From Candidatus Geohabitans tengchongensis (GTDB lineage Bacteria; Sysuimicrobiota; Sysuimicrobiia; Sysuimicrobiales; Humicultoraceae): a stretch of DNA of 53,848 nucleotides. The notes beneath the pieces are model-generated. The model was not told the DNA's origin. It did not search any database and was given only the letters and a program-made list of their open reading frames with translations. Shown here piece after piece: positions 11,357-15,418 of this stretch. The stretch is from NCBI GenBank assembly GCA_031459625.1, contig JAVKIH010000016.1, positions 1 through 53,848 on the forward strand, read 5' to 3'. The translations under genes were made by a program, and so were the position numbers. Every line of letters begins with the position of its first letter. Within the stretch, counting starts at the first letter, position 1.

Positions 11357-12073
11357 ATGCGCGTGGTGAACACGGTGGAGCTGAAGGCCCGGACGAACGC
11401 GCTGCTGCGCGAGGTGGCGCGGGGCGAGGCGGTGATCATCACCCTGCGGGGGAAGCCGGTGGCCGCGCTAACCCGGCTCACCGACGCAGACCTGGAGGAG
11501 TTCGTCCTGCGCCACCGACAGGACGCGACACGCGTCCCGGCCGCAGAGACCGTCCGCTACCGCTACTTCACGGTGGAGGCCCCCTTCGGCCCGGTCTACG
11601 TGGCCTACGGGCCCGCCGGGCCGGTCCTGGTCTCCCGGGCCGCCTCCCCGGCCGCCTTCGAGCAGGACGCTGAACGGTACCTGGGCGCCCGGCCGGTCCT
11701 CGACGCCGCCCCGCCCGCGGAGCTGCGGGCGGAGGTGACGCGGGCCATCCGCGACCGCGTCCCCTACCGCGGCCGCGTCGACCTGTCGCGGGTGCCGCGC
11801 TTCGAGCGCGCGGTCCTCCAGGCGCTGCGGCGCATCCCGCCGGGACAGGTGCGGACCTACGGGCAGCTGGCGCGGGCGCTCGGCAAACCGGGCGCGGCGC
11901 GGGCGGTGGGGATGGCGTGCGCCCGCAACCCGCTGCCGCTGCTCATCCCCTGTCACCGCGTCATCCGCAGTGACGGGGCGCTGGGCGGTTACTCGCTGGA
12001 CGGGGGCGTGGCCCTGAAGCGACAGCTCCTCGAAGCGGAGGGCGCCCTGCCAGCGCTCCTGGCGGTGCGGTAG
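11357..12073 (+). CDS. Phd/YefM-like N-terminal domain fused to methylated-DNA--protein-cysteine methyltransferase (Ogt/MGMT)
   Basis: N-terminus VNTVELKARTNALLREVARGEAVIITLRGKPVAAL (Phd pattern). C-terminus IPPGQVRTYG...ARAVG...NPLPLLIPCHRV...LKRQLLEAE. Confidence 0.88.
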   Translation: MRVVNTVELKARTNALLREVARGEAVIITLRGKPVAALTRLTDADLEEFVLRHRQDATRVPAAETVRYRYFTVEAPFGPVYVAYGPAGPVLVSRAASPAAFEQDAERYLGARPVLDAAPPAELRAEVTRAIRDRVPYRGRVDLSRVPRFERAVLQALRRIPPGQVRTYGQLARALGKPGAARAVGMACARNPLPLLIPCHRVIRSDGALGGYSLDGGVALKRQLLEAEGALPALLAVR

Positions 12074-12236
12074 CCCAGGCCGCGCGGCGCGCGGCGCCCG
12101 CGGCCCCCCCTGGGCGCGGAGGCCGCGAGCTCTCAAAAAGCCATCATCACTAAGCAATTAAAGGAAGCGGCCACTCGGTCGTGGAAGCGCCCTCCCGGGG
12201 CGGGTCCCAATTCTGCCAATCGGGGGGGAACGATCC

Positions 12237-12383
12237 ATGGCCGATCTACGCAGGCTGTGCGTTGCCGTTGCTGTCGCGCTGCTCTTCGCCGTTACGACAC
12301 TGGCCGCCGCGCCGGTGGCCGCTGCGCCCGAACTGCCGGGCGAGAACGCCATCCAGGCCCCGGAACTGCCGGGGGAGAACTAG
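12237..12383 (+). CDS. 48-aa secreted propeptide with tandem APELPGEN repeats (candidate signalling-peptide precursor)
   Basis: Below the ORF-track length cutoff; hand translation MADLRRLCVAVAVALLFAVTTLAAAPVAA-APELPGEN-AIQ-APELPGEN*. Has a G-rich RBS and a Sec signal peptide. The repeats differ only at three synonymous sites. Confidence 0.85.
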   Translation: MADLRRLCVAVAVALLFAVTTLAAAPVAAAPELPGENAIQAPELPGEN

Positions 12384-12420
12384 CCAGGCGTGCGCGGGGA
12401 CCCGCCCCGCCCGATCCGCC

Positions 12421-12472
12421 AGAGTTCCCAGCAGTGCAGCGAGCCCGGCAGGGTTCCCCAGCGGTGCAGCGA
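12421..12472 (+). repeat. Imperfect ~22-bp direct repeat between the peptide and regulator genes
   Basis: AGAGTTCCCAGCAGTGCAGCGA (12421-12442) and AGGGTTCCCCAGCGGTGCAGCGA (12450-12472). Confidence 0.7.
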
Positions 12473-12486
12473 ACCACTGTAGGGTC

Positions 12487-13824
12487 ATGGTCAAGCAGCA
12501 GAAGACTTCCACCGAACCGGCTCCATCTTCGGCCCCGGCGTGGCTCCTGGCCTTCGGCGAGCGCCTGGAGCGCGCCCGCGGCCACGCCGGCCTGACGCAG
12601 GCGGGCCTGGCGCAGGGAGAGCTCTCCAAGAGCTTCGTCAGCCTGCTCGAGACCGGACGCTCCTACCCGTCGGTGGAGACGTTGCTGCTCCTGGCCGGGC
12701 GCCTGTGCACCTCCGTCGCGGGACTGGTGCTCGACGGGCCGGCGCTGCGCCTGGACACCGCACTCAGCCTGGCCCTCCTCGCCCGTTCGGCGGTCGACGC
12801 CGACCCGAAGCTGGCTCGGGCCCTGCTCGAGACTGTGGACCGCCTGGTACCGGACCTGCCGGTCCCGGTTCGGCTCGACGTGGCCGTCATCACGGCTCGG
12901 GCGGCGCTGGCCGAGGAGCGCCTGGACGAGGCCGAGCGGGCGCTCACGCAGGTGGTGCAGCAGGCCGAGACGGCCCAGGCCCTGGCCCCGCAGGCGCGGG
13001 CGCTGGCCCTGCTGGGACGCATCGCCCTGATCCGCCGCCGCTTCGACCAGGCTGCGGGCCACCTCACCCGGGCCGTGGCGCTGTTTCGGAAGGCCGACGC
13101 GCTGCGCAGCGAGGGCGGCATCGAGGCGTTGATCTGGCTGGGGTCGGCGGCCGTGAAAGTGGGGCGCCCCCGCTTCGCCCGGCGCACCTATGAGCACGCG
13201 CTGCGGCTGGCCCGCCGGCTAAAGCTCGTCGGGTTGCAGGGACAGGCGCTGCTCGGCCTGGGCTACCTGGCCTGGGCGGCCGGCGACCTGGCCGAGGCCA
13301 CGCGCCTGATGCAGGCGTCCCGTGATGCCTTTCAGACCAGCGAGGACCGGCTCCACCTCTCCAGCAGCCTGCTCACCCTCACCACGCTCTACCTGGAGCA
13401 GGGGCGGCTCGACGAGGCGCTGGCCAGCGGCCGCCAGGTGGTGCGGTTGCGCCAGCAGCTGGGCAATCTCCGGCAGCTCAGCAGCGCGCTGGAGACCCTG
13501 GCCCAGGTGCACCTGGCCCGCGGCGACCTGGGCTCGGCGGAGCAGACCGCGCGCGAGGCCCTGGCGGAAGCGCGCCGCGCGGAGGACCCGCAGCAGGAGG
13601 CGCGGGCCCGGGCGGCGCTCGGCCGGGTCGAGGCGGCGCAGGGGCGGCGCGCGCCCGCGCTGCGCCACCTGCGCGAGGCGCTGGCCACGTTCGAACGGCT
13701 GGGGCTGGCCGAGGATGCCGCCGAGGCGGCGCGCCACCTCTCGCAGGTGTTGCAGGCCGCGGGTCGGCACGACGAGGCGGCCCGCTACCTCCACCGAGCT
13801 TTCCGCCCGCGCAGCCTTCCCTGA
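12487..13824 (+). CDS. XRE-HTH plus TPR transcriptional regulator (PlcR/NprR-like architecture)
   Basis: FGERLERARGHAGLTQAGLA...SKSFVSLLETGRSYPS (XRE HTH), then roughly 8 TPR-like helical repeats. Confidence 0.88.
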   Translation: MVKQQKTSTEPAPSSAPAWLLAFGERLERARGHAGLTQAGLAQGELSKSFVSLLETGRSYPSVETLLLLAGRLCTSVAGLVLDGPALRLDTALSLALLARSAVDADPKLARALLETVDRLVPDLPVPVRLDVAVITARAALAEERLDEAERALTQVVQQAETAQALAPQARALALLGRIALIRRRFDQAAGHLTRAVALFRKADALRSEGGIEALIWLGSAAVKVGRPRFARRTYEHALRLARRLKLVGLQGQALLGLGYLAWAAGDLAEATRLMQASRDAFQTSEDRLHLSSSLLTLTTLYLEQGRLDEALASGRQVVRLRQQLGNLRQLSSALETLAQVHLARGDLGSAEQTAREALAEARRAEDPQQEARARAALGRVEAAQGRRAPALRHLREALATFERLGLAEDAAEAARHLSQVLQAAGRHDEAARYLHRAFRPRSLP

Positions 13825-13945: not shown

Positions 13946-15418
13946 ATGCCGGAGCGGTTCTCCATGATCATCGGCGGACGGTCGGTCGACGGGCAGAGCG
14001 GCGAGGTGATGGAGGTGCGCAACCCGGCCCGCATCGACGAAGTGGTCGGCCTCGTCCCCCGCGGCGGGCGCGAGGATGTCCGGGCGGCCGTGGAGGCCGC
14101 CGTGGAGGCGCTGCGCACCTCCTGGTGGCCGCGCCTTCACGAGTCCCGCCAGCGCGGCCGGGTCCTGCAGCGCTACGTGGCCCTGGTGGAGGCGCACAAG
14201 GACGAGCTGGCGCGCACGCTCACCCGGGAGCAGGGGAAAGTCTACCGCGAGTCGGTGGCCGAGCTGGACAGCCTGATCAACACCTTCGACTACTATGCGG
14301 GCTACGCCGGGAAGATCGCCGGCGAGGTGAAGTACGTCCGGGACGGGGACAGCGTCATCAAGGTGGAGACCCGCAAGCAGCCGGTAGGGCTGTGCGCGGC
14401 CATCCTTCCCTTCAACTTCCCCGTCTCCCTCTACGCTTGGAAGGTCGCTCCCGCGCTCATCGCCGGGAACGCGGTGCTGATCAAGCCGGCCAGCACCACC
14501 CCGATCACCGACATCCTGCTCACGCAGCTCCTCCAGGAGGCGGGGGTCCCGCCGGGGATCGCCAGCATCGTCACCGGGCCGGCAGCCACCGTGGGCGACG
14601 AGATCCTGCGCGCCCCCGAGGTGAAGCGCATCGCCTTCACCGGTTCCACCGAGGTGGGGCGGCAGGTGGCGGCCACGGCGACGCCCCTGCTCAAGCACGT
14701 GACCCTGGAGCTGGGCGGCAGCGACCCGACGGTGGTGGCCGAGGACGCCGACCTGGCACTGGCCGCAGAGACCATCGTCCGCTCGGGACGCTTCCGCAAC
14801 GCCGGGCAGTCCTGCACCTCGGTGAAGCGGGTCTACGTGGTAGCCTCGGTCTTCGAGCGCTTCATGGACCTGCTGACGGCCGCGACGCGGGCGCTGCGCG
14901 TGGGGGACGGGCTGCTGCCCGAGACCGACATGGGCCCACTCAACAACGAGCAGCAGCGCGAGGACGTGGAGCGGCTGCTTGCCGACGCGCTCGCGCGTGG
15001 GGCGGAGGCCGTGGTGGGCGGCCGGCGCCTGACCGAGGGGGCGTATGCGCGCGGGTACTTCTTCGCGCCCACCGTGCTGGTGAACGTCCCCCCCGATGCG
15101 GCCATCTGGCGGGAGGAGTGCTTCGGTCCCGTGCTCCCGGTGATGGCGGTGCGCGACCTGGAGGAGGGGATCGCCCGCGCCAACGAGACCGCCTACGGCC
15201 TGGGCGCGGGGCTCTGGTCGGAGAGCGACCGGACCATCGAGCGGTTCATCGCCGGCATCGAGTCGGGGATCGTCTGGGTGAACTACAAGCCGCTGAGCGT
15301 CCCGGAGACGCCCTTCGGCGGGGTGAAGGACAGCGGGGTCGGGCGGGAGCTGGGCGCGGAGGGGCTGGCGGAGTACCTGGAGACGAAGTCCATTCGCAAG
15401 TACATCGGCCGTGCCTGA
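13946..15418 (+). CDS. NAD(P)-dependent aldehyde dehydrogenase
   Basis: PFNFP, KPA, FTGSTEVG, LELGG, NAGQSC, EECFGP, PFGGVKDSG. GGAGG RBS. Confidence 0.95.
   Translation: MPERFSMIIGGRSVDGQSGEVMEVRNPARIDEVVGLVPRGGREDVRAAVEAAVEALRTSWWPRLHESRQRGRVLQRYVALVEAHKDELARTLTREQGKVYRESVAELDSLINTFDYYAGYAGKIAGEVKYVRDGDSVIKVETRKQPVGLCAAILPFNFPVSLYAWKVAPALIAGNAVLIKPASTTPITDILLTQLLQEAGVPPGIASIVTGPAATVGDEILRAPEVKRIAFTGSTEVGRQVAATATPLLKHVTLELGGSDPTVVAEDADLALAAETIVRSGRFRNAGQSCTSVKRVYVVASVFERFMDLLTAATRALRVGDGLLPETDMGPLNNEQQREDVERLLADALARGAEAVVGGRRLTEGAYARGYFFAPTVLVNVPPDAAIWREECFGPVLPVMAVRDLEEGIARANETAYGLGAGLWSESDRTIERFIAGIESGIVWVNYKPLSVPETPFGGVKDSGVGRELGAEGLAEYLETKSIRKYIGRA

Follow-up and report, generated by a model that had tools for sequence, protein, structure and literature searches.

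A probable NprR/NprX-like peptide–receptor system in a diderm, lipopolysaccharide-making phylum outside the Bacillota

Peptide signalling of the RRNPP type has been described for the Bacillota, which are Gram-positive, and for the mobile elements that they carry (PMC10075063; PMC9765709), and it is recognized by a signature of five criteria (PMC10075063). Several of its variations are familiar: tandem peptide copies, orphans and peptide genes placed upstream of the receptor are already known in RRNPPA (PMC9765709; PMC11343458; PMC5199041; PMC3601992). The nprX gene and most phr genes are under the control of σH promoters (PMC4147580). In NprR, a protein of 18 helices, the peptide is contacted by Asn194, Asn275 and Asp309, with Asn275 in helix 11 (PMC3763537). 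Two preprints, in the portions cited here, treat Firmicutes systems only (bioRxiv 10.1101/2021.08.18.456871 and 10.1101/2023.09.19.558401), and the second leaves the root of RRNPPA (9 or 5 tetratricopeptide repeats, TPRs) as an open question that needs remote homologues. We describe here a locus of Candidatus Geohabitans tengchongensis, a member of Sysuimicrobiota (CSP1-3), a phylum made of one class and one order (PMC11604079). It lies in a stretch of 53,848 nucleotides (the window; GenBank JAVKIH010000016.1, our contig C8) of a 2.76-Mb genome with 73% GC, and associates a short gene for a putative secreted propeptide with that of a TPR regulator carrying an XRE-type helix-turn-helix (HTH). 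This pair is probably an NprR/NprX-like peptide–receptor system outside the Bacillota, with production driven by σH, export via Sec, re-import, control by an HTH–9-TPR regulator, and feedback. Searches of the literature, partly loose and outside most subscription journals and the RRNPP_Detector and FoldTree supplements, listed no paper on RRNPP systems from this phylum or from diderms.

The peptide gene is a predicted 48-amino acid (aa) secreted-propeptide gene at 12237-12383, on the forward strand as are all features of the locus given below. Its assignment is based on translation of the open reading frame (ORF), recurrence in the family and synonymous-biased variation in relatives. It is preceded by a G-rich ribosome-binding site (12222-12229), and GGAGG-type sites occupy the equivalent place in homologues. 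Residues 1 to about 29 (12237-12323) would make a Sec-type signal peptide: an n-region is followed by an 11-residue hydrophobic stretch with a mean Kyte-Doolittle value of 3.15, the n/h/c regions pass a heuristic signal-peptide test, and A-x-A type cleavage sites fall, by the same kind of heuristic, at residues 23, 25, 29 and 30. Neither a lipobox nor a Tat motif was found in any of the 72 family propeptides checked. Two copies of APELPGEN follow, the first at 12324-12347, the second at 12357-12380, C-terminal, with AIQ before it and the stop after it. This is how the initial annotation, made from the letters of the window, had read the ORF, and the reading holds. The two copies differ at exactly three nucleotides, all third positions and all synonymous (GCG/GCC, CCC/CCG, GGC/GGG), as had also been noticed; the proposal that these differences point to selection on the peptide fares less well, as three synonymous-only differences have P = 0.018 under neutrality, modest evidence if taken alone. 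The mature peptide of this locus may be PELPGEN, as in the family Ala is the residue before 96 of the 131 anchored cores. With or without its first Ala, this peptide of 7-8 residues has a mass of 754-825 Da, and it is acidic, with Gly and Pro. Propeptides of RRNPP(A) systems have 10-100 aa; those of the present family have 40-110 aa, with a median of 48.

The receptor gene (12487-13824) begins with an ATG located 103 nt after the peptide stop, in keeping with the spacing of about 100 nt and the same-strand XRE-HTH plus TPR regulator announced earlier. Its leader contains two direct repeats of 26-27 nt (12420-12475). The product has 445 aa, in the range of 250-500 aa that characterizes RRNPP(A) receptors, and its nine TPRs are within the 5-9 that make their superhelix. 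Pfam places HTH_3 at residues 27-73 with 22.5 bits, just missing the cut-off of 23, and also recognizes TPR_12 and TPR_MalT. The AlphaFold2 model (pLDDT 95.8) delineates the HTH at residues 18-81 (12538-12729), followed by 18 helices, or nine TPRs, at residues 84-438 (12736-13800). Six columns are invariant among 100 homologues, every one of them inside the HTH. We compared the model with 961 aligned chains, 50 entries of which are considered here. Residues 87-443 of the model superimpose on residues 67-418 of NprR (5dbk) with Z 28.1 and a root-mean-square deviation (rmsd) of 4.2 over 346 residues; RapJ (4gyo) gives Z 29.2 and rmsd 4.5 over 343 residues, and RapI Z 29.0 over 348 residues. The modelled fold thus fits NprR and the Raps along the entire domain. 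PlcR and AimR are absent from these 50 entries, which is not an exclusion. Other probes said little: a single-sequence search of the Protein Data Bank returned generic TPR and XRE matches only; a profile search of 1.8 billion representatives brought up mainly long TPR proteins and was set aside; hhalign against the Rap of phage phi105 gave 54%, out of register and too weak to map residues; PF18768 (RNPP_C) was found in 0 of 41 genomes, in a search that also missed the Bacillus subtilis control; and the phage collection was without any full-length receptor homologue.

Much of the argument comes from the family to which this receptor belongs. The genome encodes three full-length HTH–TPR receptors, and all three have a signal-peptide micro-ORF upstream on the same strand. 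The paralogue on contig C20 is 36% identical to the receptor of the window, and its propeptide (L286, from 30483; 61 aa) displays GDDPPDSD twice; the spacer between these copies holds two Cys, possibly a disulfide loop. The paralogue on contig C1 is 32% identical, and its propeptide (L287; 43 aa) ends with a single Gly-rich tail. A perfect ACTTCA-N7-TGAAGT repeat sits 204 nt upstream of the L287 peptide gene, and a small HTH gene, LuxR-type by eye, comes directly after the C1 receptor (about 223250-222900, reverse strand).

Receptor matches with E <= 1e-15 are present in 80 of the 94 genomes surveyed, a sample in which phylum, class and order coincide (one class, one order); one family has none in its 12 genomes. 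A homologue 49% identical to our receptor carries the NCBI label Armatimonadota. We used 131 matches (30 plus 101 fetched), leaving out 37 that were unlisted and 19 that were listed, the latter mainly at contig edges or among the weakest and including one paralogue from the genome itself; 122 of the 131 had at least 400 nt upstream. Two loci (L077, L102) from genomes marked unpublished (G016, G024) enter the counts, and no conclusion rests on them. A filter that asks for a ribosome-binding site, a length of 30-110 aa and an uncharged hydrophobic stretch within 300 nt was positive upstream on the same strand at 70 of 122 receptor loci (one of them, L118, a false positive), against 2/122 on the opposite strand and 1/125 downstream. 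When applied to 2224 crude gene starts of the genome it retained 37, by eye mostly tails of membrane-protein genes, with two true cassettes among them. The adjacency typical of RRNPP(A) genes is seen at these loci, and looser searches recovered a few more peptide genes than the strict filter. At one locus (L200) the peptide gene is divergent from the receptor, unlike in the remaining family.

The peptides follow the receptors. The family propeptides are rich in Gly, Asp and Pro, with exact internal repeats in 34 of 72, and in the receptor tree the motif is specific to each clade (GHGDGELL, GDDNGPG, GDxGPxG and ADxDxPGGG types). A whole clade lacks peptides, and further orphans are scattered. 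Peptide similarity falls as receptor distance grows (Spearman -0.38, n=71, kin not being independent), and it is 0.24 in 19 pairs of same-genome paralogues vs 0.51 in 125 pairs of close receptors. This is what was to be looked for according to the initial annotation, which had proposed to collect homologues and see whether each had an adjacent signal-peptide micro-ORF with a co-varying motif: 70 of 122 have the former, and the motif follows the clade. The ratio of non-synonymous to synonymous change (pN/pS) is 0.22 in the cores, 0.42 in the signal regions and 0.48 in the spacers of 19 hand-picked sister pairs; judging from these comparisons, the peptide cores are under purifying selection. A count of 159 synonymous differences among exact repeats was discarded as a test of selection, as these are synonymous by construction.

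The groove of the receptors tells a similar story. Family columns 217, 297 and 337 sit in helices 7, 11 and 13, matching Asn194, Asn275 and Asp309 of NprR; helix number and offsets of 20-25 are what suggests this equivalence. Asn or Ser at 297 combined with Asp or Glu at 337 is found in 75 of 76 peptide-linked receptors vs 19 of 54 peptide-less ones. For these sets three truncated or mis-parsed rows were dropped, two paralogues were added, L151 and L161 were added by hand and L118 was removed. At residue 297, Asn stands in 45 of the 76, Ser in 30 and Thr in one. A conserved, predicted peptide-anchoring Asn (compare RapF N227, RapJ N225 and NprR N275) is present at the level of the family. The initial annotation could point to no peptide-binding Asn; this is correct for the receptor of the window, which has T297, and not for its family.

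More distant receptors (25-30% identity), with a clade of their own in the tree, come from records whose titles name Gaiellales, Gaiellaceae, Thermoleophilia or Actinomycetes. Their micro-ORF is directly downstream: among the matches listed, full-length named loci show it in 28 of 30 cases and metagenome loci in 23 of 27, DG or DN is near the end of the peptide in 44/51, and Asn297 is present in 51/57 receptors. A σH-type motif was found before 0 of the 51 downstream peptides of this actinobacterial type.

In the phylum itself, the promoters argue for σH. The peptide gene of the window is preceded by a σH-type promoter (AGGA-N18-GAAG, 12162-12188), recognized by its motif pattern, by its agreement with mapped SigH promoters (PMC7438776, part of Table 3) and by the presence of SigH in the genome. 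The pattern AGGA(A/T)-N16/17-GAA stands before 55 of 70 peptide genes, the three of this genome among them (shuffled sequences: mean 2.5, maximum 8), vs 2 of 53 peptide-less receptors. SigH scores above the TIGR02859 equivalog cut-off in this genome, as it does in 84 of 94 genomes. The SigH gene (G000 C43:95643-96233) is of the Bacillus type, in a diderm phylum. A σH-type motif also precedes spoVS (C28 near 21885), known as a SigH target (PMC7438776), and about a dozen further candidate σH promoters are listed in the genome. Abutting the -35 box is a candidate operator of the AGCAATT type (12152-12161). This motif occurs in 10 of 70 upstream regions of peptide genes, all in the clade of this receptor (shuffle mean 0.23, maximum 2), and has two matches in the whole genome; at 13 of the 70, ACTTCA-N7-TGAAGT is found at the peptide promoter. 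Such clade-specific motifs are candidate operators. No operator palindrome common to the family emerged, and a scan for sigma-70 promoters and terminators found nothing.

From the anatomy, recurrence, selection, fold, co-conservation and promoter motif that we observe, we infer a scenario of expression, export, processing, import, binding and sign of regulation. At the transition to stationary phase σH would transcribe the peptide gene, as suggested by the motif and the SigH gene. Sec would export the propeptide, and cleavage behind Ala would release two copies of (A)PELPGEN. The peptide would return via one of the many Opp/Dpp transporters (the genome has 21 matches to their binding proteins, SBP_bac_5) and, as the family fold and the co-conserved groove residues suggest, would bind in the 9-TPR groove and switch the XRE-HTH regulator. 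The latter may then act on the operator at the peptide promoter, creating feedback. At the level of the family we are rather confident in this mechanism, with NprR/NprX-like cassettes spread over a diderm phylum that makes lipopolysaccharide (LPS), and the RRNPP-like cassette proposed by the initial annotation is supported at this level by recurrence, motifs tracking the clades and groove residues. That the receptor of the window still reads its own peptide is somewhat better than an even bet.

Several observations weigh against this interpretation. LGN, a TPR protein unrelated to this signalling, gives Z 29.6-30.1 over 312-316 residues, and it comes first in the Foldseek order, with RapF at rank 30. 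The sequence profile of the family finds RapJ at E 5e-18, with generic TPR proteins, LGN included, scoring above it. On the evidence of the model, LGN ties with or beats Rap and NprR, so that the fold gives no proof of descent from RRNPP. No RRNPP-specific model is in the top 25 families listed. At 52 of 122 loci, one entire clade among them, the strict filter sees no peptide. The sole RNA run covering the region yields a single 43-kb contig, as library DNA would give, which leaves transcription unsupported. An outer membrane stands between periplasm and medium. Finally, two features are proper to this locus. Its receptor has T297/T337, the single exception among the 76, and is without the anchoring Asn. 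And relatives L204 and L205, with a receptor 96% identical, are without the peptide gene, as is run X14. The two together make the pairing less sure here than for the family.

The outer membrane is at the root of an alternative that we consider possible, if rather unlikely: the peptide would stay in the periplasm and be re-imported by the same cell, so that the circuit would serve as a timer private to that cell, or as a sensor of export and envelope state, instead of counting neighbours. Most of the scenario above would hold in this case too, the two readings overlapping. The host is diderm, because it encodes lipid A synthesis and BamA: a cluster on C12 comprises BamA, OmpH, LpxD, LpxC, FabZ, two LpxA, LpxB and Lpt genes, and LpxC is present in 86 of 94 genomes. 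(In this cluster, at C12:100000-120000, locus L288, two lpxA copies are seen, together with a 634-aa ORF between lpxD and lpxC.) At 750-830 Da the peptides would be close to the limit of porins, usually about 600 Da, or beyond it. Against a private circuit, the same pairing exists in monoderm actinobacterial relatives, and the many divergent, clade-specific peptide types and their repeats are what the diversification of pherotypes yields in Rap–Phr (PMC5199041; PMC11343458). Of the 'quorum sensing' of the initial annotation the peptide–receptor layout stands; signalling is what this layout suggests, and in a diderm host the peptide need not leave the envelope.

It is also conceivable, though we find it unlikely, that the family senses peptides while this particular receptor is blind to them, an orphan whose peptide is vestigial or read by another receptor. 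T297/T337 resemble the residues of peptide-less receptors, and orphan Raps exist (PMC5199041). The change is shared with an 88%-identical relative, and all 24 relatives at 46-52% identity (P0004-P0027) keep N297; codon 297, Thr here and Asn or Ser in the family, is at 13375-13377, in the predicted peptide-anchoring position of helix 11. The sole Asn of the receptor is N327. Thr, for its part, is still able to hydrogen-bond to a backbone. In L204, L205 and X14 the promoter and peptide-gene segment (12074-12429) is swapped for 117 unrelated nt, the receptor remaining under purifying selection (pN/pS 0.25). (In L204 and L205 the replacement reads as the end of a short hydrophobic ORF, with no match in this genome.) Runs X5 and X6, from other studies, retain the peptide gene with mainly synonymous changes: five of the six listed are synonymous, and the sixth is in the linker. 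In the window itself promoter, ribosome-binding site, signal peptide and both peptide copies are intact, and the two paralogues adjoin quite different peptides. Going by these sequences, some lineages can do without the peptide gene and others conserve it, a pattern to be expected either of strains that are non-producers or of a pair in decay.

Much less credible, to the point of being very improbable, is that the micro-ORF encodes the precursor of a ribosomally synthesized and post-translationally modified peptide (RiPP) or another small secreted product, the HTH–TPR protein being a mere neighbour or its regulator. Repeated cores are typical of RiPP precursors too, and the weak NCBIfam matches of the receptor, far below cut-off, are to HaaT and to TPR proteins of FxSxx systems. 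Yet none of 25 peptides matches an NCBIfam model, the scanned neighbour genes are housekeeping and variable, with no modifying enzymes among them, the genome has three radical-SAM genes, each at a great distance from every one of the three cassettes, and receptors keep the groove residues where there is a peptide and lose them where there is none. Lastly, that the micro-ORF is a chance frame within a longer receptor gene beginning at GTG 12181, as the uninterrupted frame 12181-13824 would allow, can be dismissed as practically impossible: the pattern of GC by codon position is wrong for this extension, of six substitutions listed in the contigs of relatives, five are synonymous if read in the micro-ORF frame and five non-synonymous if read in the long one, signal-peptide micro-ORFs recur at family loci, and relatives with the segment deleted keep the receptor intact from 12487.

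The neighbourhood offers few clues to the target of the regulator. Downstream comes an aldehyde dehydrogenase gene (13946-15418; Pfam Aldedh), a weak candidate; it recurs at L075, L076 and L078, with different genes at the other scanned loci. Upstream, an ORF at 11357-12073 fuses a Phd/YefM antitoxin-type domain to an O6-methylguanine DNA-binding (Ogt/ATL) domain. Elsewhere in the family, the peptide-less receptors at L083, L084, L088 and L090 are divergent from a neighbouring gene, which we take to be of the TrpR/YerC type, and glnS is on the other side at L087 and L090.

What, then, is the status of the NprR/NprX-like system proposed here? Four of the five features of the RRNPP signature are seen in it, and the fifth, Sec export, is indicated by heuristic only. 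The Bacillota host range described so far is not that of this organism. Because descent is unproven, the host lies outside the Bacillota and this copy lacks the anchoring Asn, we file the locus as RRNPP-like, and not as a member. A wider view is tentative, with chances that we put somewhat below even: peptide signalling via cytoplasmic receptors, wired to σH, would be old and Terrabacteria-wide, not an invention of the Bacillota; it would work across the outer membrane of LPS-diderms, with many orthogonal peptide 'languages' and non-producer strains, and the 9-TPR receptors would be an outgroup for rooting RRNPPA. The family supplies remote homologues for this rooting, with cognate peptides readable from the genome. 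It makes testable whether peptide signalling operates in cells that possess an outer membrane, how the specificity of receptors for peptides diversifies (more than 70 natural pairs, orphans and a natural peptide deletion are at hand) and what the σH regulon of this phylum is. The peptide–receptor pairs are also candidate orthogonal peptide switches.

Compared with known systems, the locus stands at varying distances. RstA of Clostridioides difficile resembles one family member weakly along its full length (21% over 93%, E 1e-7); in a small tree for which it serves as root it stands apart from the family, whose groove residues it does not share. As in PlcR–PapR, AimR–AimP and AloR, an HTH–TPR receptor adjoins a small Sec propeptide; the palindromic operator logic recalls the PlcR box, the operators here being candidates only, and relatives of AimR and AloR have Asp/Pro/Gly-rich peptides, as here, whereas PlcR has 5 TPRs (bioRxiv 10.1101/2023.09.19.558401). 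The initial annotation had stressed that a peptide gene upstream of the receptor is the reverse of plcR-papR; the placement is right, and it is not unusual among RRNPPA (PMC9765709). With Rap–Phr (B. subtilis, phages phi3T and phi105) the family shares the superhelix, several paralogues per genome, orphans and intragenic duplication of peptides (PMC5199041; PMC11343458), as well as σH-driven peptide genes (PMC4147580). Raps, by contrast, have no HTH and act on response regulators, and in Phr peptides the second residue is a conserved Arg (PMC3601992), whereas the cores here are acidic and Gly/Pro-rich. From NprR–NprX the system differs by an identity of 11-12% only, by a peptide gene located upstream with its own promoter, where nprX is downstream and co-transcribed, by cores that are often tandemly repeated, by its diderm host outside the Bacillota and, in this copy, by Thr at the anchor. 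The likeness is nonetheless extensive: an HTH followed by 18 helices making nine TPRs, superimposable over most of NprR; family Asn positions in helices 7 and 11 which, if the mapping is right, answer to Asn194 and Asn275; a predicted peptide of 7-8 residues cut from a Sec propeptide; and a σH-type promoter, as for nprX (PMC4147580).

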